A program made the translations under genes and the position numbers. This document shows positions 2,501 to 20,404 of a DNA stretch of 64,000 nt, piece after piece. The notes beneath the pieces are model-generated. The model did no database searches. It was not told the origin of the DNA and worked only from the letters and a program-made list of their open reading frames with translations. The stretch comes from Thermoflexales bacterium (lineage in GTDB: Bacteria; Chloroflexota; Anaerolineae; Fen-1058): contig DAOTXX010000064.1 in assembly GCA_034434835.1 (NCBI GenBank), positions 3,402 to 67,401 of the forward strand, read 5' to 3'. The stretch's first letter is position 1. Each line of letters starts with the position of its first letter.

Positions 2501-5131
2501 TCACATCACTAGCTTCAAATCCGCGTAACAGTACGGCGTATAGACCAACCCCAGCACGTTGCGCTTGAGCAAAAGCTGCCAGCGCAGCTTTTGAATGGCT
2601 TTGCCAATTGGCTCGCCATTCAGAAACGCCTGGATCAACCCCTGCCCGAACTCGACGGCCAGCGGCTCAAAGACGGTGACCTCGGTGCCGATGATGCCTG
2701 ATGCCCCTGCCGCGCCAAACTCGGGCAGGAAATTCGAGAGCGCCTCCGGCGTGAACTCGACTGTGTGACAGCCATTGATGAACACAAGCGGGCGCACGTT
2801 GTTGAATCGCCAATGGTCTTCCAGCCCCAACCCGGAAAGATTCGACGGCACCAACTGATCGCCTTTGCCCACTGTCAGCCAGGGCTTTTTGCCGTCGGGC
2901 GTCGAGCCGCCGTGACAGTAAAAGTAACACAACTGCTGCGCTTGCTTCAGGCCCCCGTAAACTTTTTCCAGCTCGTCGGCCACGCTCGCCTCGCCATTCT
3001 TTTGCTTGATCTGCTTGACGATCCATTCTTGATGTGCCAGTCGGAGCTTGAAATCCTCGCCCACGTACACGTGGATCGTCACCTTAGGATGACCGCCGGC
3101 CTTGATTTCGCGCACGATCGAGGTCGGCTTGCCATCTTTTTTGATCACGCTCAACGGCTGCTCGACAATGTGCCGAAAGCCCCAAAAGCCTGCGAGGCAA
3201 ATCACGTTCGGGTCGTCGCCGTGCGAGCAGTGCACGCAGGAGGCCAGTCCCTCTTCTGGCGTCTTGAACTTGAGCGGCTCCAGACACACTTGATTCTTGT
3301 CACGATCGATCATCAAGCGCCGATCATAGATGCCATCCCATGGAAAGACAAAATCGCTCGAAAGCCGCGCGATTTGAATGACCGCCGAGGGCGTATCGGC
3401 GAGCGCCTGCCGCAGCTCGCGCGTCAAGTCAATCGTCTCTTCTCGATAGAACACGCTGCGGAACAGCGCGTTCCCCACATAAGCCAGCGTCTTGAGATCG
3501 TGGACGAATTGCTCCTGGCTGCCGGAATTGTCCGCGCCAAAGCGATAGCCTTCGTCGTCCCTGACGATGCCGAGCAGCCTGGCGCGGAACTCGGTGACGG
3601 CTTCTTTCATCTTGTCGCGGCCCACGTCGAGCGCGCCTTCGGTCTGCGTGCCGACCACGCCGATCATGTGCGTGCCATCCGGGTTGTCGTTGACCAAGAC
3701 GTTCACGCGGCGCTCTTGCAACTGCATGATGTCGGCCCAATCCTCGCTCAAGCTGTACTCGATCTCGGCCCAATTGCCGCGCTCGCCCCGGCCCAGCTTG
3801 CGCTCTTGCTCGTTTACCCGCGCGTGGAGCAGGATGGACTGGACGAGGTTGTTCTGGTAATAGAGGCCGATCCTCAAGCGAGCCTCCCGGGTCACCTCAC
3901 GGGGCGTGACCGCCAGGTGCAGTCGCCGGGTGGCTCCCGTTCTGAACAAACGCAATTCAGCCGTGTCTTGTTCAATGTCAAAATCGCGGCTGAACAGTTT
4001 GACCCGCAGGAGCAGACCTTGATCCGGGATAGGCGGCAGGTCAGGGTCAATCGGGCGCGGGGCGACGATGATGCTTTCGCGCAAGAGCGGCCCGATGTGC
4101 AGTTGCGCCCGGTAACGTTGCCCACGAGCCAGGGTGCGCTCGCGGATGAACGCTTCGCCGTCCTCCTGGTCGGTGAACCAGGTGTTGACGTAGCGTGCCC
4201 GCGCGTGGGTTTTCTCCAGCGTGGACGCCGAAACCTCTGGTGATTCATCGGCGGCCCGGGGGGAAGATGGAATTTCACGCGTGCGCGCCTGGTTCGCAAG
4301 CCTCTCATACGCTTGTCGAGTGCTGGTCAAGTCCATGCGCCAAGTCTCGTAGACTAGCGCAGGCAGGTTATCTTCTAGCGCCAACACAAGTTGCTGGATT
4401 TTGCCCGGGGCGCTCACGTCACTTGCAGGCATAGTGTTGATCGTGGGAATGGTGAGCGAATGTAGCGGCATTGCCAGCGGATCGGGCGCGCTCAGGCTCA
4501 CAACCTCCTGAGCCAACTGGCCCGCCTGGATCGCGCCATAGCGATCGGGATAGCGCACGATCACATACCAGTTTTCGTTGCCCTTGACCTCGCGCAGTGT
4601 GTCGAACACATCTCGGATAGTTCGGGTCGCAGACACGACGACGAAATCAGTGGTAGGGATCGCGGCAGTCGCCGCGGCGGCCGCCAGTTGCTCAAAAGCC
4701 GCTTTGGCATTTTGAAAATCCAAGATGGAAGGACGCAGTTGCTCAAATGCTATGGCGACTGGCCTGTCGCCTTCCAAGACTAGCGTGAGTGGGCGAATCT
4801 GATCCAGGCTGCCGGACGAACTCGGCACAGTGTTGATGGCAGGAATAGCCAACTCGCGCAGCGTCACGCCGAGCGCAGCCTGAATGCCCCGGCTGATGAC
4901 CATTTGCGCCAGCTTGCCCGCCGAGAGGCCGCCATAATGATCCGCGTACTGGACAATGACGCACCACCCGGAATTTGCCTGGGCGTCGGTCAGCCTGCGG
5001 AACACGTCGCCTACCGTCTCGGTTTCGGAAACGATGATGAAATCGCGCGAGAGCATTGCGTGCCACCCTAGCAGCTTGTCGGAGAGCAGGCTGGCCTCCC
5101 TATGCCAGCCCCTTGAAAACCGCCGACGCAT
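2501..5131 (-). CDS. Large CHAT-domain (caspase-like) protease with two N-terminal CBS-like repeats
   Basis: C-terminus has His (YFYCHGG) and Cys (LVFINGCHT) dyad, GASGIIGTEV...AFLNGEPIGKAIQKLR and terminal LGLVYTPYC, matching CHAT. Two ~110-aa N-terminal repeats (FIIVSETETVGDVF...VIVQYADHYGGLSAGKLAQ / FVVVSATRTIRDVF...VIVRYPDRYGAIQAGQLAQ) resemble CBS modules. Confidence 0.7.
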   Translation of the reverse strand: MRRRFSRGWHREASLLSDKLLGWHAMLSRDFIIVSETETVGDVFRRLTDAQANSGWCVIVQYADHYGGLSAGKLAQMVISRGIQAALGVTLRELAIPAINTVPSSSGSLDQIRPLTLVLEGDRPVAIAFEQLRPSILDFQNAKAAFEQLAAAAATAAIPTTDFVVVSATRTIRDVFDTLREVKGNENWYVIVRYPDRYGAIQAGQLAQEVVSLSAPDPLAMPLHSLTIPTINTMPASDVSAPGKIQQLVLALEDNLPALVYETWRMDLTSTRQAYERLANQARTREIPSSPRAADESPEVSASTLEKTHARARYVNTWFTDQEDGEAFIRERTLARGQRYRAQLHIGPLLRESIIVAPRPIDPDLPPIPDQGLLLRVKLFSRDFDIEQDTAELRLFRTGATRRLHLAVTPREVTREARLRIGLYYQNNLVQSILLHARVNEQERKLGRGERGNWAEIEYSLSEDWADIMQLQERRVNVLVNDNPDGTHMIGVVGTQTEGALDVGRDKMKEAVTEFRARLLGIVRDDEGYRFGADNSGSQEQFVHDLKTLAYVGNALFRSVFYREETIDLTRELRQALADTPSAVIQIARLSSDFVFPWDGIYDRRLMIDRDKNQVCLEPLKFKTPEEGLASCVHCSHGDDPNVICLAGFWGFRHIVEQPLSVIKKDGKPTSIVREIKAGGHPKVTIHVYVGEDFKLRLAHQEWIVKQIKQKNGEASVADELEKVYGGLKQAQQLCYFYCHGGSTPDGKKPWLTVGKGDQLVPSNLSGLGLEDHWRFNNVRPLVFINGCHTVEFTPEALSNFLPEFGAAGASGIIGTEVTVFEPLAVEFGQGLIQAFLNGEPIGKAIQKLRWQLLLKRNVLGLVYTPYCYADLKLVM

Positions 5132-8120: not shown

Positions 8121-9056
8121 TCAGACAATGACTCGAAGCTTGCGCGGCAAGATTTCCATCATGAGCGCTTTGGCGCAGGTGGCATAGATCTCGCCGTCGG
8201 CGTGAACGGCATAGCCCTCCTCGCAGCGCACGGTCACATGTTTGGCGCGCATCATGTGCACGTGAGGGTTGGTGGCTTGCGTGCCCTTCATAAAGAGCGG
8301 GATCAGCATGAACATTTCAACGCGGCGAACCTGATCGACCAGGCAGATGTCAAACAGACCATCATCCATTTCGGCTTGCGGCGTGACATAGAATCCGCCA
8401 CCGAGTCGCCGCCCATTGGAAACCGAGATCATCATCATCGGGCGCTCGATGCGCTGGTCGTCTAGTTCGACGATGGCGCGCGGCGCGCGATAATACCACA
8501 GCATCGTCTGCAGCACCGCCAACGTGTACATCAGGAACCCGCGCGCCCAACTGAGCTTGCGGCTCACAATGTTGACCGTGCCATCAAAACCGATGCCCAC
8601 ACCGTTGCCAAAGTAACGGCCGTGATCAGAATCGCCCCAGATTCGGCCCAGGTCAATCCAACGTGTCTTGCCCGTGTAAAAGTAGCGGAGGATGGCCTCG
8701 AGTGTTTTGCGATCGTGCGCGCGCGGCATGCCCAGCATCCACGCGAAATCATTCCCCGACCCGATCGGGATCAGGCCGAGCGCGGCACGGCTATTCTCGC
8801 CGTGTCCGCTCCTCATCAGGCCATTGACCACTTCTTGCGCCGTTCCATCGCCGCCCGCGGCGGCAATGATGTCATAACCTTCCTCACAGGCGCGCGTGGC
8901 CAGCTCAATAGCTTCGCCAGGCCGGGACGTCTCCACCCAACTGACCTCGCCGTTCTCGCTCAGCCATGATCGAATGTGCGGCCCCAACTCGCGGGCGTGT
9001 CCGTGATCGGCGGCCGGGTTGAAAATTACCTGGATTCGTGGCATCTTGCTCCCCAT
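8121..9056 (-). CDS. Diacylglycerol kinase catalytic-domain lipid kinase (YegS/DagK-like)
   Basis: RIQVIFNPAADHG..., IIAAAGGDGT, IPIGSGNDFA motifs. Confidence 0.8.
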   Translation of the reverse strand: MGSKMPRIQVIFNPAADHGHARELGPHIRSWLSENGEVSWVETSRPGEAIELATRACEEGYDIIAAAGGDGTAQEVVNGLMRSGHGENSRAALGLIPIGSGNDFAWMLGMPRAHDRKTLEAILRYFYTGKTRWIDLGRIWGDSDHGRYFGNGVGIGFDGTVNIVSRKLSWARGFLMYTLAVLQTMLWYYRAPRAIVELDDQRIERPMMMISVSNGRRLGGGFYVTPQAEMDDGLFDICLVDQVRRVEMFMLIPLFMKGTQATNPHVHMMRAKHVTVRCEEGYAVHADGEIYATCAKALMMEILPRKLRVIV

Positions 9057-9251: not shown

Positions 9252-9527
9252 GTGATCAGGTTAGAAGGCACTCGGCGCGAGCAATTGATTGAAGAATGGA
9301 CCACACGGCTGGAGCGATGGGGATGGATGCCTGTTGCTCCGGTCCTGTTCCAGGTGCTTCGGCCACTGGGATTTCTCGGCAGCCAGGCCGTGTTGTTCGG
9401 GCAGCCTCTCTTGACGCTGTTTGCAGACGGCCAAATGTGGTCAGAATTGTCATCGTTGCTGGATGATCAAGACGCGCTGGGTCAGATTGAGAACCGCTTG
9501 ATCGGCACAGATCACCCGGCCTCTTAG
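9252..9527 (+). CDS. Hypothetical small protein, first gene of conserved-looking operon
   Basis: ORF preceded by TTGACA-16-TACAAT promoter-like sequence (9195-9228); no recognisable motif. Confidence 0.35.
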   Translation: MIRLEGTRREQLIEEWTTRLERWGWMPVAPVLFQVLRPLGFLGSQAVLFGQPLLTLFADGQMWSELSSLLDDQDALGQIENRLIGTDHPAS

Positions 9528-9538
9528 GAGCAAGTTCA

Positions 9539-10285
9539 GTGCCAGAGCCTACACTCATTGCGGGTCTATTCATCGCTGCGGTGATAGGCGCGTTGGTCAT
9601 CGGGCGTGCCTGGGCTGCCCGTCATCCCACTGTGCGTCCGTTGCAGGGCTTTCGGGTACTGCCGGGCCAGCAGAGCCGCGCGATCGAAAGTGGGCAAAGC
9701 TTTCACATCGCGCTGGGCACTGGCAGCGTGAGCAGCAGTGACACGGCGACCACGTTGGCAGGGTTGGCCGTGTTGGAATCTCTGGCCGACGAAGCCGCCG
9801 CAACGGATACCCCTCCCACAGTGACCGTAGCAGATCCGACGACCCTCGCCCTGGCGCAAGATGTTCTCCGCCGCGCCTACATCCGTCACGGCAATCTGGC
9901 CGGTTTCGATCCGCGCTCGGTCCGCTACGTAGCGGCCTCGCCTCTGCCTTACGCAGCAGGGGTGATGGACATTCTCGCCAGCGAAGATACGTCGGCCAGC
10001 GTCATGGCCGGCGTGTTCGGCACGGAAGCCGCGTTCATTGCCGAAGAAGGCTCCAAGCAAGGATTCCTTCAGGTGGCCGGCGCGGCTGATCCCACGCCAT
10101 TGGGCGTCATGTACCCCTCGGTGAACCACCTGCTGATCGGCGAAGAGATGTTTGGCGCCGGCGCGTACATCAGCGAGCACCCCTCGCACGTGGCCAGCCT
10201 GTTGGCGCAAGATGTCGCTCGCTTGGTGCTGTTCCTGATCATTCTCGCCGCCTGGCTCGGTGGGCTGCTTGGAGGCGCCCGGTGA
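9539..10285 (+). CDS. Hypothetical protein with N-terminal TM anchor and C-terminal TM
   Basis: Hydrophobic N- and C-termini; 4-bp overlap with next gene. Confidence 0.4.
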   Translation: MPEPTLIAGLFIAAVIGALVIGRAWAARHPTVRPLQGFRVLPGQQSRAIESGQSFHIALGTGSVSSSDTATTLAGLAVLESLADEAAATDTPPTVTVADPTTLALAQDVLRRAYIRHGNLAGFDPRSVRYVAASPLPYAAGVMDILASEDTSASVMAGVFGTEAAFIAEEGSKQGFLQVAGAADPTPLGVMYPSVNHLLIGEEMFGAGAYISEHPSHVASLLAQDVARLVLFLIILAAWLGGLLGGAR

Positions 10286-10965
10286 AGCGCTACCTTCCCT
10301 CCGTCGTTGTCATGGCAGTCGGCTGGATCACATTGCTCACTTATTTCCTGCCTGGCCTGGTGTTCGTCCGGTTGCTCTTGGTCGAGGTGGCGATCATTGT
10401 GGTCGCATTGGGCATGATCCTGGGCGCCGGGAATGTGCTCTCAGTCCATCTGACCCAGGTCTCGCGCGGGCCATCCAGGTTCTTGAGTTTTGTGTTGGTG
10501 GCCAGCTTCCTGATTGTGTTCATGGTCTCTTTCATCTTTGAGGGAGGCGCGGACCTGGCAAGCAAGTTTGTGGCAGGGCGCATGGTACAAGATGCCCCCC
10601 ACATCGCGCAGCAAGGCGTCGCTGGCCCGGTGATGGTCGGCGTGTATCAATACGTCCTGATCCCGACCCAATCTGCGCTCGCGGCGCTCCTGCCGTTCCT
10701 CCTGGCTTTTGCTGCCTACCGAACGTTGCGGATACGCACTGCGGCGAGCCGCGCCGGAGCTGCCGTATTTTTGATCACAGCCATATTGGTGTTGTTGGGT
10801 CAGGTTCCACTCCTCAACTTGGGGTTTCTTGGTGATATACGCGAGTGGGTCGTGAGCGTATTGGCGATGGCCGGCATGCGTGGCATCCTGCTAGGCGTCG
10901 CTATTGGCATCACGGCGACCGCCTTGCGTGTGCTGATTGGGGCAGATCGCCCGACGAGTGACTGA
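10282..10965 (+). CDS. Polytopic integral membrane protein (about 6 TM)
   Basis: Hydropathy of translation; stop overlaps next start. Confidence 0.45.
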   Translation: MKRYLPSVVVMAVGWITLLTYFLPGLVFVRLLLVEVAIIVVALGMILGAGNVLSVHLTQVSRGPSRFLSFVLVASFLIVFMVSFIFEGGADLASKFVAGRMVQDAPHIAQQGVAGPVMVGVYQYVLIPTQSALAALLPFLLAFAAYRTLRIRTAASRAGAAVFLITAILVLLGQVPLLNLGFLGDIREWVVSVLAMAGMRGILLGVAIGITATALRVLIGADRPTSD

Positions 10966-13460
10966 TGATCACCTGTCCGAATTGCGGCGCATCGAATCCA
11001 GACCATAACCTGTTTTGTGACCGGTGTGACACCCGACTGCCTTCATCGGGTGCGTCGAGTAGCCGCCGTTGCCCGATGTGCGGCAAGGCTAACCCGCCAG
11101 GTAGCGACACGTGTGTCTCGTGCGGCGCGCGCCTGGTTCCAGTGACAGGCCCACTGGCCCAGCAACCTGCGCCGACTTTACGTCCTTCGGCAGCGGAAAC
11201 GATAGCTGCCAAGCCAACGCCACCTGCAGCCGCGCCCAAACCCGAGCCTCCGCTGGGGCCTTCCGACGACTGGCTCAGCAGCTTGCGCGGCGCGCTGCCC
11301 GAGCAGACCGCACCTGAAGAAGAGATTCCAGACTGGTTGCGCGGCGAGCCTTCCGCGCCGGTCGAAGTTGAACCGCCGGAACTCGATCTCGCGGCGCGAT
11401 TGGGTGGAGCGCAAGCCGCTCAGCCCGAAGCTCCCGACTGGCTCCAACAACTTGCGCCCAAGCCTTCCGCTCCAGCAGTTCCTGCGCCCGCGCCTGTGGA
11501 ACAAGTACCTGATTGGCTCCAGCAACTTGCGCCCACACCTCCCAAGGCGGCGCCTCCGTCTCCTGCTCCGGCGGCTCCGCCACCCGGCGACCAAGTGCCC
11601 GATTGGCTCAAGCCATTTGCTCCGGCGGCGGCGGTTGCCGCAAGTGCCCAGCCTGCGCCTGCCGCACCGCCCTCTGCAGAACCAGAGCCTCGCCGGATGT
11701 CACCCAAGCCGCCTGTGCCACCTGCTACAGCCGCGCCAACGCCAGGCGAGGCCGAGATTCCCGATTGGCTCAAGGAGCTTGCGCCGACACCGGCTCAAGC
11801 TCCATCCAAGCCTGCAGCGCCCACACCCGCGGAAGCCCAAGTTCCCGATTGGCTCAAGCCACCTGCGCCGACAGCTCCCCAACCTGCAGAAGCCGAGGTG
11901 CCCGATTGGCTCAAAGGGCTGGGGCCTACGCCGGCACCTGTCGAGGCCAAGGCTCCTCCACCTGCCTTCATCGAGCCTGCTGCTGCTCCGGTAGCCGCCG
12001 AAGCAGAGGTGCCGGATTGGCTGCGCGAACTGACCGCAACTCCTGCTGCGCCCCCACCGGCTGGCCCGGCCTTGGTCGCTGAGCAAGTGCCAACTGTCGA
12101 GACGCCGCTGTGGCTCGCCGAGATCAGCGCTCAACCAACCCCGGCAGAAGCTCAGATCGAGTCCCCGGAGTGGCTGAAGGAACTGCAGGTGCAGGCTCCA
12201 ACAGAACTACCTGTGGCCCCGGTTCAGGTTCCTGCACTTGCCGAAGAAGCGCCCGCCGAGGCTGCCGAGGAGTTGCCGGACTGGCTGAAGGAACTGGGGC
12301 CAGCAGGCGCGCCTGCCGCTCGGGCGCCGGTGTTCACTGGGCCGCCTGCTCCGACTCCGGCCCTGCAGCCTGAAGCCATTGGCCTGACGACTGCCCCACT
12401 TCCGGCGTGGCTGCAAAAGCTTGCGCCCCGCGAGGTGGCCCCAGAGGCAGAGAAAGAACCCGCTGAAACTGAGGGCCTATTGGCCGGGGTGCATGGCCCA
12501 TTGCCAGCAGCGCCCATCATCACGCAAAAGGCGACCGGCGAGCGCCGCCCGATGCGTCCTGAAATTCCCGCCGCCGATCTGTCGCGCGCGGGGACGCTGC
12601 AAGAACTGCTTGCGCGTGGCCCAGCCCGGGTTGTCCGTCGCGAGGTCCAAAGCCGCGCGCAAAGGCTGTGGTTCAACACGCAACGCTGGTTCATCTTTCT
12701 GGTCATCCTGGCAGTCGCCCTCATCCCACTCTTGCAACCAGATTGGGCAGTGATATTGGTGAGGGCACCGCTGTTCAAACCTGCCACCAACCATGTGTTC
12801 CAGAGCATCCAGGCCCTCAAGCCGGATGCGACGGTCTTGGTGTCGTTCGACTATGACGCGAGCCAGGCCCCCGAGATGGACACCCAAGCGCGCGTGCTGT
12901 TGCGCCACCTGGCAGCGCGCAAGGCGCGCGTCAATGTGGTCAGCTTGTATCCCACCGGCCCGGCTGTGGCAGAAGCGGTCATCCATCAGGTCAACCAGAC
13001 GCTCACGGTCACCGAGCGGGTCAATATAGCCAGCCTCAAGTACGTGCCTGGCCAGGATATGGCAGTGGCCTTTATATCGGGCGACGTGCTCACGTCGTCG
13101 TTGGTTATTGAACTGGCCGCCACCCCCGAAACCTTGCGCTGGTGGGTCGAGCAGACGTCGGCGCTCCGGGAACCGCCAGTTTCCCAGCAGCCCCCGCCGC
13201 TGTTGGCGGGCGTCAGCGCTGCAGCCGAGCCAATGTCTCAGCCGTACTATCAGAGCGAACAGATCAAAGGCATGTTGGCTGGCGTCCCCGATGCCACAGC
13301 CTACCGGCTCAAGCTTCGTGAGGTGGTCAAGGACGATCAGACGCCATTGCCCAGTGTGCTCGCGCCGCTGGCGTCCATCGGTCTTGCCAACGGGGCGCTC
13401 GTGTTGTTGATCCTGATCGGCGGCCTGGTCCAACTCGCTACAGGAGGCAGACGCAGATGA
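10965..13460 (+). CDS. Double zinc-ribbon protein with about 13 proline-rich PDWL(K/R/Q)xLAP repeats, TM helix, extracytoplasmic domain and C-terminal TM
   Basis: N-terminal CPNCG...CDRCD...CPMCG...CVSCG; repeated (E/Q)(V/I)PDWL motif; two hydrophobic segments bracket a ~250-aa domain. Confidence 0.6.
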   Translation: MITCPNCGASNPDHNLFCDRCDTRLPSSGASSSRRCPMCGKANPPGSDTCVSCGARLVPVTGPLAQQPAPTLRPSAAETIAAKPTPPAAAPKPEPPLGPSDDWLSSLRGALPEQTAPEEEIPDWLRGEPSAPVEVEPPELDLAARLGGAQAAQPEAPDWLQQLAPKPSAPAVPAPAPVEQVPDWLQQLAPTPPKAAPPSPAPAAPPPGDQVPDWLKPFAPAAAVAASAQPAPAAPPSAEPEPRRMSPKPPVPPATAAPTPGEAEIPDWLKELAPTPAQAPSKPAAPTPAEAQVPDWLKPPAPTAPQPAEAEVPDWLKGLGPTPAPVEAKAPPPAFIEPAAAPVAAEAEVPDWLRELTATPAAPPPAGPALVAEQVPTVETPLWLAEISAQPTPAEAQIESPEWLKELQVQAPTELPVAPVQVPALAEEAPAEAAEELPDWLKELGPAGAPAARAPVFTGPPAPTPALQPEAIGLTTAPLPAWLQKLAPREVAPEAEKEPAETEGLLAGVHGPLPAAPIITQKATGERRPMRPEIPAADLSRAGTLQELLARGPARVVRREVQSRAQRLWFNTQRWFIFLVILAVALIPLLQPDWAVILVRAPLFKPATNHVFQSIQALKPDATVLVSFDYDASQAPEMDTQARVLLRHLAARKARVNVVSLYPTGPAVAEAVIHQVNQTLTVTERVNIASLKYVPGQDMAVAFISGDVLTSSLVIELAATPETLRWWVEQTSALREPPVSQQPPPLLAGVSAAAEPMSQPYYQSEQIKGMLAGVPDATAYRLKLREVVKDDQTPLPSVLAPLASIGLANGALVLLILIGGLVQLATGGRRR
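11260..12420 (+). repeat. Degenerate tandem coding repeats (GTNCCNGATTGGCTNAAG... units) inside 10965-13460
   Basis: Recurrent CCCGATTGGCTCAAG/CCGGACTGGCTGAAG at irregular 60-120 bp spacing. Confidence 0.6.
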
Positions 13461-14200
13461 TCCCGCCCATTGACGTGATCACGACGACCGTCGCTGCGCT
13501 GCTGACGTTGTTTGTATTCGGCTATTTGTTGGGCGACTTGCCTGGTCTTGGCGCGCTGTTCAAGTTCTTGTATCGCCTGGCGATGCACGTCCTCATCGGC
13601 GCAGGTGTGGCGTACGCGTTTGCTGTTGCCATGTGGAGCATTATCTTTCAACGCGTTGCGGTGCGCCTGGTGCAATTCGCCGCCGAGTTCACACGAGTCG
13701 GCTTTCAGATTTCGCAAGTCAGCCCGGAAGGTTGGTTCAACTTGAGCGTCCCTGCTGTGGGCGTTGTGCTGGGCGGACTGTTGCTTTTCAAGCTCAGCCG
13801 CAGCACAGCCTGGTTGGGCAATCTTGCCACCAGCTATCTGGTCGGCGTGGGATTGGCAGTCGCCCTGGGCGGCGCGCTGATCGGAACCCTGTTCGCGCAG
13901 ATCAGGGCGACCAGTCAGGCCGGGATCACGTTCACTTTATTGGACCCCCTGATCGTGTTAGTGGGCACACTGACGGCGCTGGTCGCCTTTACTTTTACGG
14001 CCACCGCACGCCGGGGCGTGCTGGGAGTGGTGTCGCGTGGTGTGCAGGGTGTCGGGGTTCTGGGGCGGCTCTTTGTGTATCTTGCGCTCGGCGCGGCGTT
14101 TGCCGGAGCCTATGCAGCCAGTGTGGCCGTGCTCGTGGGGCGGCTGCAGTTCTTGATCGAGGCGCTCGAGACGATAGTGGGATACTTTTTAGGTGGCTAG
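13457..14200 (+). CDS. Polytopic integral membrane protein
   Basis: About 7 hydrophobic helices; overlaps previous stop. Confidence 0.45.
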   Translation: MIPPIDVITTTVAALLTLFVFGYLLGDLPGLGALFKFLYRLAMHVLIGAGVAYAFAVAMWSIIFQRVAVRLVQFAAEFTRVGFQISQVSPEGWFNLSVPAVGVVLGGLLLFKLSRSTAWLGNLATSYLVGVGLAVALGGALIGTLFAQIRATSQAGITFTLLDPLIVLVGTLTALVAFTFTATARRGVLGVVSRGVQGVGVLGRLFVYLALGAAFAGAYAASVAVLVGRLQFLIEALETIVGYFLGG

Positions 14201-16020: not shown

Positions 16021-17103
16021 ATGGATGACGAATCAGTAGGATTCTATTCATACGAGGCGCACGTCATGCCGCTGACCATGATCCGGCGTGAGCGGCGTCT
16101 GCCGATGCCGGGCGAAGTGATGGTCCGCCCCGGCGAGCGCGTTGAGCCGACGCAAGTTGTGGCGCGCGTTCACCAGACACAAGACTTTCGCATTATGGAC
16201 GTTGCGCGTGCCTTGCGTGTGCCACGCTCGCAGGTCAAGCGGTTCATGCTCAAAGAGGTCGGCGCGACCGTCGAAGTCAACCAACCCCTGGCGGCGCGCG
16301 GCGGGCTGTTTCGCCGGATCGTCCGCGCGCCGGCCAAGGGCGCGATCGTCGCCGTCGGCAATGGGCGGGTGCTGCTCGAAGTCGAGCCAGAGTTGGTCGA
16401 AGTGCGCGCTAACCTCACGGGCACCGTCATCGCCGTGACGCCGGGGCTGAGCGTCACGATCGAGACGCCCGGCGCGATTGTGCAGGGGATGTGGGGCTGC
16501 GGCGGCGAGGCGTTCGGCGTTTTGCGCGTCGTGGCCGAAAGGCGCGACGAGTCGCTGCGCGCCAAACATGTTGACGTGGCGTGTCACGGCGCCATCGTCA
16601 TCGGCGGCGGGACGATTGAGGCTTCGGCGTTGGAGCAGGCGCAGCAGCTCCAGGTGCGGGGGCTTATCGCTGGGAGCATGGAGGGCGAGATGCGCGCTCA
16701 GGCAGAAGCGATGCCGTTCCCCATTATCCTGACGGAAGGCTGGGGCCGTGTGCCGATGGCGGAGCCGATCTTTAACCTTCTCCAAGCCCAGACGGGCCGT
16801 GAAGCGTCCATCAGCGCCGAGACGCGCGCGCGCTTTAGTTTCAAGCGTCCCGAGATCCTCATCCCCTTGCCTACTGAAACCCGGCCCGCGCTTCCACCTC
16901 CGCCGGGCGCGCCGCTCTTTGTAGGAGCCAAAGTGCGCGTCGTGCGCCCGCCATACCTGGGTATGGTCGGCGTGGTTGCGGCGATCTCGCCTCAGGCTCA
17001 GCGTATAGCCAGTGGCGCGCGCGTGCGCGGCGTTGAGGTAGACCTGGGTGGAGATGCCGGCACCGTATTTGTGCCCTATGTCAATTTGGAGCTTTTGAGG
17101 TAA
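16021..17103 (+). CDS. Hypothetical protein (Gly/Val-rich beta-like segments)
   Basis: No recognisable catalytic motif; same strand, follows ATPase. Confidence 0.4.
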   Translation: MDDESVGFYSYEAHVMPLTMIRRERRLPMPGEVMVRPGERVEPTQVVARVHQTQDFRIMDVARALRVPRSQVKRFMLKEVGATVEVNQPLAARGGLFRRIVRAPAKGAIVAVGNGRVLLEVEPELVEVRANLTGTVIAVTPGLSVTIETPGAIVQGMWGCGGEAFGVLRVVAERRDESLRAKHVDVACHGAIVIGGGTIEASALEQAQQLQVRGLIAGSMEGEMRAQAEAMPFPIILTEGWGRVPMAEPIFNLLQAQTGREASISAETRARFSFKRPEILIPLPTETRPALPPPPGAPLFVGAKVRVVRPPYLGMVGVVAAISPQAQRIASGARVRGVEVDLGGDAGTVFVPYVNLELLR

Positions 17104-17223
17104 AATTATAGATACAGGCCGCTAGCCAGAGAGTGCTCCTCTGGAGGGCGGCTAAAATCAAGACAAACTCTATAGAACCGGCGTCGTCTGTTGTCGCGCT
17201 TTGCCCCTCAGAGGAGGAATGCA

Positions 17224-17793
17224 ATGGCAATAGAAGAAGAAGAGCCGATGGTCGGTGTGCCTGAGGAGGAAGAAGGCGCAGAGTCTTCCAATCGAATGTT
17301 CATGTTGCTGGCGCTGGGCCTGGGCGCGCTGTTCGTCGTTGGGCTGATCTGCATCGGCGCGGTGTTCTTTATGCAGCAAGGCCAGTCGAATCAGCAAAGG
17401 GCAGCACTCGCCACACAGTCGGCCAGGCAAACGGCAGCGGCTATTGCAGCCTTGCCGACGGCGACGCCACCCGCACCGACGGACACGCCGGTGCCGCCCA
17501 CACCGACGTCCGTTCCACCGACCAACACGCCGGTTGTTCCCACCCCCACCCTGCCAGCCCCGACCGAAACGGTCATGCCGACTGCAGCCGGGGTAAGCAA
17601 AGCCACGGCAACCGCTGGGCCGGGGACCAAAGTGGCCGCCGCCACGTCCGCACCGGGCGCGGCTGCAACTGCCACCACGGAAGCGGGCAGCACTCCGCAG
17701 ACAGGCGTGGGCGGCGTTGAGATGGTCTTGGCGGCAGGGGCTTTGTTGGTAGTGTTGTTTGCCGCTCGGCGGCTGCGCCTGGCACAACACTAG
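17224..17793 (+). CDS. Secreted/anchored Pro-Thr-rich protein with C-terminal sorting-signal-like tail
   Basis: RBS GAGGAGG 7 nt before ATG; N-terminal TM/signal; PT-rich; C-terminal TPQTG + hydrophobic stretch + RRLRLAQH. Confidence 0.5.
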   Translation: MAIEEEEPMVGVPEEEEGAESSNRMFMLLALGLGALFVVGLICIGAVFFMQQGQSNQQRAALATQSARQTAAAIAALPTATPPAPTDTPVPPTPTSVPPTNTPVVPTPTLPAPTETVMPTAAGVSKATATAGPGTKVAAATSAPGAAATATTEAGSTPQTGVGGVEMVLAAGALLVVLFAARRLRLAQH

Positions 17794-19510: not shown

Positions 19511-20404
19511 ATGGAGTGGAAGAATCAGCCTCGCCTGGGCACCCAGGTCGGTATTGGCCTGATCGTATGGCTGGTGCTGTTGGACGTATTGTTGGTGTGG
19601 ATCGCCGCACAGCTTCCGGTCTCGATCGTCACGTTTGTGGTGGCGGTGATCGCGCTGGCGACGCTGCCAGTCATACTGCTGATCGTTTACTGGCTGGTTG
19701 GCCTGAACCGGACATCGTATTGGATGGATCGTAACATGCTGATTATCCGTTGGGGGCCAGTGCAGCAAATTATCCCCATGGCGTCTATCCAAAAGCTGTT
19801 GCACGGTTCCGAGATCGCCGGGCAGGTGCGCCGGTTTCGCGGCGGTCGCTGGCCGGGGCTGTGGGTGGGCCAGGCCGAGGCCCAAAGCATCGGGCCGGTT
19901 CTCTTTTACGCTTCGGGCGGGTTGGAGCAACAGGCCATCATCATCACGCCAGGGCTGGCGTATGCCATCTCGCCGCATGATCTGGCCGGGTTTGTCGAAG
20001 CGTTTGATCAGCGCCAAAAGATGGGACCGACGCAGGCCGTCGAGCAGGTGTCCATCCGGCCCGAGATTTTCGATTGGTCGCTGTGGACCGATCGGCTGGC
20101 GCTGGGGTTAGTTGGAGCCGCTGTGGCGAGTTGCCTGCTGCTGTTCGGCTATACCTGTCTGCGCTTTCCTGAACTGGCCCCGCGCGTCGCTTTGCACTTT
20201 GACGCGGCGGGCGTGCCAGATCGCTTTGGCCCGCGCGCCCAGGTGTTTCTCTTGCCGTTCATCGGATTGCTTTCGCTGGGCACAGATCTCGTCCTCAGCG
20301 TGCCGGTGTATCTGCGTGACCGCGTGGGAGCGTACCTGCTGTGGGGTGGAGCAATGATCGTCCAGGTCCTGGCCTGGATTGCAGCGGTGGGCATCGTATC
20401 ATAA
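19511..20404 (+). CDS. Membrane protein (3 N-terminal TM, central soluble domain, 3 C-terminal TM), possibly bacterial PH-like
   Basis: ATG immediately after TAA of 18131-19510; hydropathy. Confidence 0.4.
   Translation: MEWKNQPRLGTQVGIGLIVWLVLLDVLLVWIAAQLPVSIVTFVVAVIALATLPVILLIVYWLVGLNRTSYWMDRNMLIIRWGPVQQIIPMASIQKLLHGSEIAGQVRRFRGGRWPGLWVGQAEAQSIGPVLFYASGGLEQQAIIITPGLAYAISPHDLAGFVEAFDQRQKMGPTQAVEQVSIRPEIFDWSLWTDRLALGLVGAAVASCLLLFGYTCLRFPELAPRVALHFDAAGVPDRFGPRAQVFLLPFIGLLSLGTDLVLSVPVYLRDRVGAYLLWGGAMIVQVLAWIAAVGIVS

Follow-up and report, generated by a model that had tools for sequence, protein, structure and literature searches.

A Repeated Tryptophan Motif on a Putative Membrane Protein of Anaerolineae as a Candidate Docking Array for a GlmL-Like ATPase

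A Candidate Docking Scaffold

A 64-kb window (the whole stretch of DNA analyzed here) of contig DAOTXX010000064.1 from a Thermoflexales bacterium (GCA_034434835.1) carries an open reading frame (ORF), here called g4, which occupies positions 10965-13460 of the forward strand and codes for 831 aa. It belongs to a cluster of nine genes (g1-g9), together with further membrane-protein genes and with g6, which encodes an ATPase of the GlmL/MutL family. Behind an N-terminal double zinc ribbon, the g4 protein bears 13 short motifs, each centered on a Trp residue, in a tether of ~450 aa followed by two transmembrane (TM) segments. We tentatively propose, with somewhat less than even confidence and from sequence comparison and predicted structure, that g4 might be a membrane-anchored, multivalent short-linear-motif scaffold that docks a cytosolic ATPase module. 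The conserved synteny with the ATPase gene, together with the observation that motif-less g4 was never found beside it, provides indirect support and makes the docking-scaffold reading plausible.

According to this proposal, each motif, E-[VIL]-P-D-W-L-x-x-L, would dock the cytosolic module whose genes lie downstream, and the motif peptide, which would tend to form one or two helical turns, would most likely be received by the g6 ATPase, possibly acting with the soluble protein g7. Held by the array, many copies of the ATPase (13 here and 1 to ~28 in relatives) would gather under a membrane complex, and translation of g4 would be coupled to that of g2, g3, and g5, which encode membrane proteins.

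The Tryptophan Motif Array of g4

The 13 Trp residues of g4 (aa 103, 124, 159, 184, 214, 268, 296, 315, 352, 383, 403, 440, and 482) all stand in motif context; nine copies read exactly PDWL, ten P[DE]WL, and 12 PxWL, and the first copy, at W103, reads SDDWL. The consensus of the array is E-E-[VIL]-P-D-W-L-[RKQ]-E-L, as exemplified by the peptides AEAEVPDWLKELAPT and PAEAEVPDWLKGLGPTP. An earlier reading of this DNA, made from the letters alone (the sequence-only reading), had counted about 13 PDWL-type repeats, and the count is borne out. [DE]W[LM] occurs 11 times in the tether; in 20,000 shuffles it reaches 0.15 on average and never more than three, which corresponds to a ~70-fold enrichment over shuffled sequence. 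The same reading had described the copies as irregularly spaced at 20-40 aa; the spacing is indeed irregular, while the measured distances run from 19 to 54 aa. Among the ORFs of the window and of 691 kb of related loci, the motif is restricted to g4.

The Pro/Ala-rich disordered character that had been assigned to the region was also found, as Pro and Ala make up 24% and 22%, respectively, of aa 71-520, and aa 61-530 are predicted to be disordered in an AlphaFold2 (AF2) model, built with an alignment of 69 homologues as input, in which the predicted local distance difference test score (pLDDT) of this part is mostly <50. In this model, short helices or local rises in pLDDT occur at W103, W124, W214, W296, W383, W403, and W482, and predicted disorder with helical bumps at Trp is typical of elements whose folding is coupled to binding. 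The tether is net acidic (60 Asp and Glu vs. 27 Lys and Arg), a composition that argues against binding to anionic membranes.

No model of the array was found in the databases searched, in agreement with the earlier remark that the motif was not recognized from any described family. Pfam gave no match at E <= 0.1 for aa 60-560 of g4, the single NCBIfam match of g4 was to its zinc ribbon and none fell on the array, and PADLOC returned no match for g1-g10, by which the candidate assignment as a defense system was rejected. A literature search found no record describing the PDWL motif, and searches on DUF6754, PF13941, and GlmL/ASKHA gave nothing relevant.

Conservation of the Motif and the DNA beneath It

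The g4 protein has 647 homologues (E < 1e-5), of which the named ones all belong to Anaerolineae or Chloroflexota bins, with no public annotation beyond 'zinc-ribbon domain-containing protein'. All of the best 120 of these 647 homologues carry the motif, with 5-28 copies each, so that the repeats are conserved in orthologues, where the sequence-only reading had allowed that they might turn out to be low-complexity sequence without conservation. An unbiased count of every tether Trp in 119 homologues (n = 2,038) placed 82% of them in a [DE]-W-[LMIVF] context. Upstream of the Trp, Pro stands at -2 in 84%, Val, Ile, or Leu at -3 in 62%, and Glu at -4 in 63%; downstream, Leu stands at +1 in 86% and at +4 in 58%. 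In the same tethers, Trp accounts for 3.1% of residues, Phe for 0.7%, and Tyr for 0.2%, the median motif spacing is 29 aa, and the spacers between motifs are not conserved. The acidic charge of the tether is found across the family as well (Glu 17%, Asp 4%, Arg and Lys together ~5%).

In the 69-protein alignment, W103, W124, and W482 form invariant columns, and it is the number of middle copies that varies. The motif is retained in orthologues down to ~30% identity. Close relatives (77-99% identity) retain the full set of 13 Trp, the linkers of more distant ones contain 8 to 34, and the motif copy number over the whole family ranges from 0 to ~30; the suspicion that repeat number would differ among relatives therefore applies to distant homologues and fails for close ones. 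A search with the C-terminal domain returned 2,409 representative clusters (E <= 1e-3), some members of which have a Trp-free tether. Taken at the level of sequence comparison, these data indicate that the motif is under selection across the g4 family, and a short, conserved, repeated motif in disordered and poorly conserved sequence is what defines a short-linear-motif array, the class to which it had been assigned earlier.

The sequence-only reading had further taken the DNA at 11260-12420 to be a degenerate tandem repeat prone to expansion or contraction, which did not hold. Tandem Repeats Finder gave 0 rows at a minimum score of 30 on the array DNA, and a repeat search detected only motif-level copies of 28-42 nt with 62-86% identity at irregular spacings of 57-162 nt. 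The longest exact direct repeat measures 18 nt, which, with the empty Tandem Repeats Finder result, rules out a slippage-prone tandem repeat. Synonymous codons also differ among the copies (CCA/CCC/CCT/CCG, GAC/GAT, and CTC/CTG/TTG). With no tandem repeat in the DNA and with varied codons, it is therefore at the protein level that the likeness of the copies is maintained, and recent DNA duplication is not its source. These observations bear on the view that the repeats arose through functionless low-complexity drift or as a by-product of repeat expansion in the DNA, for which the Pro/Ala-rich composition, the low pLDDT, and the existence of family members entirely without the motif could be cited. 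We consider this view hardly credible, not only for the codon differences and the missing tandem repeat but also because the motif exceeds its shuffled expectation so strongly and its positions are conserved over 27-99% identity while spacers and copy number drift; on account of the motif conservation data, neutral drift is excluded.

The composition of the tether also bears on a stickers-and-spacers explanation, in which the Trp/Leu motifs would bind each other, the zinc ribbon, or the membrane interface without any folded receptor, so that g4 complexes would cluster or a condensate or brush would form under the membrane. Such behavior would fit the regular spacing, with its median of 29 aa, in a flexible low-complexity spacer and the widely varying copy number, and Trp generally favors membrane interfaces. 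However, the strongly acidic flanks and spacers disfavor binding to an anionic membrane, the conserved Pro at -2, Asp at -1, and Glu at -4 exceed the needs of a simple hydrophobic sticker, and members with a single motif exist, although one motif cannot drive multivalent self-association. This explanation thus seems rather improbable to us.

Association of the Motif with the ATPase Gene

The sample of loci was enlarged by a metagenome scan that took the zinc ribbon as its seed; after removal of redundancy, 51 loci had an intact ribbon and no less than 2.3 kb of downstream sequence. All 40 g4 genes that adjoin the ATPase gene carry at least one motif, six further motif-bearing g4 genes have no adjacent ATPase, and none of the five motif-less ones (L033, L034, L035, L038, and L047) is adjacent to it (Fisher p = 2e-4, phylogeny ignored). 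The motif-less members P0275, P0282, P0306, P0333, and P0292 keep g1-g5 in varying combinations and have a CYTH, polyprenyl-synthase, or HMA gene in place of the ATPase, and in a sixth motif-less case, L043, an HMA gene follows g5. In the low-copy members P0291, with one motif, and P0303, with five, both g6 and g7 are present. Three loci with a single-motif g4 (L041, L049, and L056) still have the ATPase, because of which one motif looks like the minimal state; the lone motif of ATPase-linked g4 sits just behind the ribbon, at ~aa 94-106. In a rough tree without support values, motif-less and motif-bearing g4 are interleaved, and P0282 (no motif, no ATPase) is placed beside P0303 (five motifs, ATPase).

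Several points weigh against the docking-scaffold reading. The association is phylogenetically clustered, and it therefore represents few independent events. Six motif-bearing loci (L061, L065, L068, L071, L072, and L075) have no adjacent ATPase, so the motif has been kept there without a neighboring g6, and a strict rule by which the motif occurs if and only if the ATPase is adjacent was rejected. These six loci look like one clade in sequence because they all share the same N-terminal sequence, and where inspected (L071 and L075) their operon stops at g5 and DgkA. Their ATPase might be encoded elsewhere in the genome, which another Anaerolineae bin shows to be possible: in L017 (9983-13395), the genes for the ATPase, g7, and a g8-like protein occur by themselves, with 10 kb of unrelated upstream sequence and no g1-g5, which shows that the genes of the cytosolic module can be separate from those of the membrane module. 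The topology is a further weak point, as the zinc ribbon and tether would be cytoplasmic and the alpha/beta domain outside the membrane by virtue of the positive-inside rule, applied to the Arg-rich stretch before TM1 and the RRR after TM2, and of the cytoplasmic nature of Cys4 zinc ribbons. Finally, the motifs could in truth be bound by g7, by g9, or by a protein not linked to the cluster.

Binding to an unlinked partner is the main rival of the docking-scaffold reading, albeit an unlikely one. The motifs might dock a cytosolic protein encoded outside the cluster, for instance by mimicking the C-terminal peptide of FtsZ and binding FtsA or SepF, and divisome or cytoskeletal proteins would then be placed or sequestered at the g4 membrane complex. 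A receptor encoded elsewhere fits the motif-bearing clade without an adjacent ATPase, and FtsA is among the structural neighbors of the peptide-binding ASKHA proteins. The C-terminal peptide of FtsZ has the consensus D-[IV]-P-x-[FY]-L-[RK], and five of the 13 g4 copies fit the relaxed form [DE][IVL]Px[FWY][LM][RK], which nothing else in the six-frame translation of the window does, although this likeness is tentative, as the FtsZ tails of Anaerolineae may differ from the consensus. Moreover, the g4 motifs are internal (aa 103-482 of 831) and not C-terminal, and a receptor with a general housekeeping role would give no reason to expect the ATPase module to be missing beside every motif-less homologue. 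A search of the window and of 1.34 Mb of related loci turned up no ftsZ, and the GGGTG[ST]G signature is absent from g4 and from the window.

Within the cluster, g6 is the best receptor candidate and g7 the second; g9 ranks lower, as some loci with the motif do not have it. The motifs might still tether g9, a regulator of the STAND winged-helix type, in the manner of a membrane-bound anti-activator, with the outer Rossmann-like domain sensing a signal and g9 being released to control transcription. The g9 protein is cytosolic and its gene is conserved beside the cluster in most loci, and g4, whose zinc-binding N-terminus would lie in the cytoplasm and be followed by a linker, a TM segment, and an outer domain, recalls transmembrane anti-sigma and signaling proteins in its layout. 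Nevertheless, g9 is absent downstream in L042 (five motifs) and L015 (four motifs), in both of which g6 and g7 are present, and 13 to 28 sites for one regulator are hard to rationalize, so we hold this possibility to be quite improbable.

The GlmL-Like ATPase g6

The g6 protein matches Pfam PF13941 over aa 9-467 with 214.5 bits, far above the cut-off of 27, but it remains below the NCBIfam equivalog cut-offs for GlmL (85.7 vs. 475) and TIGR01319 (49.9 vs. 204). Pfam scans found no mutase genes in the g1-g9 cluster, and these two results together rule out that g6 is a true GlmL. The homologues P0182, P0189, and P0222 bear the public name 'glutamate mutase L'; their scores do not come near the GlmL equivalog cut-off, and the loci with annotated neighbors showed no mutase gene around homologues of that name. 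The name is thus probably an over-annotation in ATPases of the g6 type, and a different function is suggested for the automatically annotated 'glutamate mutase L' proteins of this type.

The AF2 model of g6 has a pLDDT of 91 and shows an extra C-terminal beta-rich region of ~120 aa. The phosphate-binding residues of the ASKHA fold (D13, G15, G166, G167, G171, G297, and T301) are invariant. A sequence search of PDB with g6 gave nothing useful, and the Foldseek neighbors of its model are ASKHA proteins, including hydantoinase and acetone-carboxylase subunits, PilM (E ~9e-9), FtsA, Hsp70, and DdrA. Peptide complexes have been solved for some of these structural neighbors, namely PilM with residues 1-12 of PilN (5eou), FtsA with residues 336-351 of FtsZ (4a2a), and FtsA with FtsN (7q6i).

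Comparison with Known Systems

PilM is recruited by the N-terminus of PilN, and FtsA by the C-terminal peptide of FtsZ and by FtsN. Similar to the PilM-PilN and FtsA-FtsZ pairs, an ATPase of the actin/Hsp70 fold (g6) is encoded here beside a membrane protein (g4) with a peptide in a predicted disordered tail. Unlike PilM and FtsA, g6 falls in the GlmL/MutL family (PF13941), and the g4 motif is internal and repeated 1 to ~28 times, whereas the PilN and FtsZ peptides occur once and at a terminus. The g4 motif also uses Trp where the consensus of the FtsZ tail has Phe, and the Pfam scans showed no pilus or divisome genes in the g4 cluster. By analogy, the g4 array may work like the recruitment of PilM or FtsA without being a member of those systems.

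A second likeness is to Eps15 and epsin, in which arrays of DPW, DPF, NPF, and WxxF motifs are multivalent docking sites. They share with g4 many short acidic/aromatic motifs (4-7 residues in Eps15 and epsin) in a long disordered region. Nevertheless, those proteins are eukaryotic, while g4 is a putative bacterial integral membrane protein without homology to them, and AP-2 appendages and EH domains are absent here. With the DZR (PF12773) proteins, g4 has the ribbon in common, yet this accounts for only 6% of g4, and the array, the TM segments, and the outer domain lie outside it. Finally, g6 shares the PF13941 match with the GlmL/MutL accessory ATPases of B12-dependent mutases, but, in contrast to them, it is linked to membrane-protein genes (except in L017) and has no mutase genes nearby.

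Domain Layout of g4 and the Gene Cluster

The features of g4 and its cluster are listed in Table 1. The ribbon scores 36.6 bits against the PF12773 cut-off of 27.3 (E = 4.9e-9), and its eight Cys residues (C4, C7, C18, C21, C36, C39, C50, and C53) are conserved in the 69-protein alignment, which confirms the double zinc ribbon that had been seen earlier at the N-terminus; the AF2 model shows two zinc ribbons in aa 1-60 with a pLDDT of ~75-86. Between the array and TM1, residues E501, G504, G508, and A542 are invariant in the same alignment, and the conserved helix at aa 536-550 has a pLDDT of 67-77. The element ETEGLLAGLRGVLP (aa 499-512, window 12459-12500) is a second conserved linear element in this part and was also seen in the low-copy member P0299 (one motif). 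The alpha/beta domain at aa 600-790 is modeled with a pLDDT mostly >90. Foldseek against PDB with the g4 model gave generic Rossmann-type matches only (E ~1e-3), and a PDB sequence search with the C-terminal 331 aa returned no match.

Table 1. Features of the g4 protein and of the surrounding gene cluster in the window (nt positions).
Feature	Position	Strand	Remarks
g1, 91-aa conserved protein, first gene of the cluster	9252..9527	+	Syntenic elsewhere
g2, DUF6754: TM, alpha/beta domain, second TM	9539..10285	+	Pfam PF20539, E = 1.5e-38
g3, polytopic membrane protein	10282..10965	+	Stop overlaps g4 start (TGATG)
g4, zinc ribbon/W-motif array/two-TM protein	10965..13460	+	647 homologues, E < 1e-5; AF2 model
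g4: double zinc ribbon, aa 4-54, four CxxC pairs	10974..11126	+	Pfam PF12773 DZR
g4: array of 13 Trp-centered motifs in acidic Pro/Ala/Glu-rich disordered tether	11262..12428	+	
g4: juxtamembrane elements, ETEGLLAGxxGxLP (aa 499-512) and helix aa 536-550 (ARAxLxQELLAR)	12459..12614	+	
g4: TM1, aa 564-590, Arg-rich stretch before it	12654..12734	+	AF2 helix; hydropathy segment 568-599
g4: Rossmann-like alpha/beta domain, aa 600-790, between the TMs	12762..13334	+	AF2, alternating beta-alpha pattern
g4: TM2, aa 800-825, then GGRRR	13362..13439	+	AF2 and hydropathy
g5, polytopic membrane protein	13457..14200	+	Start overlaps g4 stop (ATGA)
g6, cytosolic GlmL/MutL-family ASKHA ATPase, 590 aa	14204..15976	+	Pfam PF13941, E = 3.2e-63
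g7, 360-aa soluble protein, weak barrel-sandwich-hybrid signal	16021..17103	+	Always accompanies g6
g8, 200 aa: acidic N-terminus, TM, Pro/Thr-rich stretch, second TM	17191..17793	+	
g9, STAND/AAA NTPase and OmpR-type winged helix	18131..19510	+	Trans_reg_C, E = 1.7e-18; weak nSTAND1

As well as at both ends of g4, stop and start codons overlap between g2 and g3 (GTGA), and because of these overlaps the sequence suggests translational coupling of g2-g5. The gene order g1-g9 is kept in ~20 Anaerolineae genome bins. A genome scan seeded on the ATPase g6 returned 29 loci, nearly all labeled as bins of the Anaerolineae type (Anaerolineales, Thermoflexales, and Ardenticatenales), with two labeled Chloroflexia and one 'uncultured bacterium', and those with enough upstream sequence have the same gene order, with L017 as the sole exception. 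A PDB sequence search with g7 gave nothing useful, and g9 belongs to the cluster usually but not always.

The C-terminal part of g4 (12672-13457) has the same layout as g2, which is a TM segment, an alpha/beta domain of ~200 aa, and another TM segment. BLASTP between the two was negative, while hhalign aligned them end to end over 197 columns with a probability of 2.6% and E = 0.018, and an ancient paralogy of g2 and the g4 C-terminal domain is possible. The g8 protein matches NCBIfam GltJ, known from myxobacterial gliding, over its TM and Pro/Thr-rich part with 24 bits (E = 1.4e-5), where the cut-off is 450, a match that is probably compositional. The g9 protein has no receiver domain, and a gene for a membrane protein with bPH_5 and DUF1648 (19511-20404, +) follows it without an intergenic gap and is not conserved in other loci. 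In two distant versions of the cluster, a PspA/IM30 gene, of a kind concerned with membrane stress or remodeling, lies downstream of the g9 regulator; it stands directly after g9 in L041 (7998-8675), and another occurs in L003 (15895-16575), where one response-regulator/histidine-kinase gene lies between it and g9.

Genes related to lipids are found repeatedly next to the membrane module. A gene for a YegS/DAGK_cat lipid kinase is located divergently upstream of the cluster (window 8121-9056, -) and also in L004 (70% identity), DgkA (PF01219) follows g5 in the motif-bearing clade without the ATPase (L071:13157-13531 and L075:5362-5787), and a polyprenyl synthase gene adjoins motif-less g4 (L034:2857-3921 and L038:6215-7246). 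This recurrence may hint at a lipid- or polyprenol-linked role of g1-g5. Farther upstream, an ORF of 876 aa (window 2501-5131, -) with a weak C-terminal match to CHAT (caspase-like) and a weak match to CBS appears to be unrelated to the cluster.

Conclusions

Organization by arrays of identical short linear motifs in disordered tails is well known from eukaryotic trafficking and signaling, while few bacterial examples are known to us. Both multivalent disordered docking arrays and peptide-recruited ASKHA proteins are of known kinds; the motif, the g4 family, and the nine-gene cluster are absent from Pfam, NCBIfam, PADLOC, and the literature searched, and up to ~28 identical motifs on a bacterial membrane protein are unusual. 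A bolder version of the docking-scaffold reading, which is speculative and has little likelihood in our view, would have the array template the clustering or polymerization of an unstudied branch of ASKHA ATPases beneath a five-protein membrane complex, with the number of motifs (1 to ~28) setting the number of ATPase units, and would make the whole a new envelope or cytoskeletal machine specific to filamentous Anaerolineae.

Anaerolineae are abundant in sludge, sediments, and hot springs and have few cultured members, and the g4 cluster, which is conserved and wholly uncharacterized, is widespread among them. The pairing of the g4 motif peptide with the GlmL-like ATPase is a concrete and testable hypothesis which, if true, would provide a defined peptide-receptor pair that is usable for testing as a tool.

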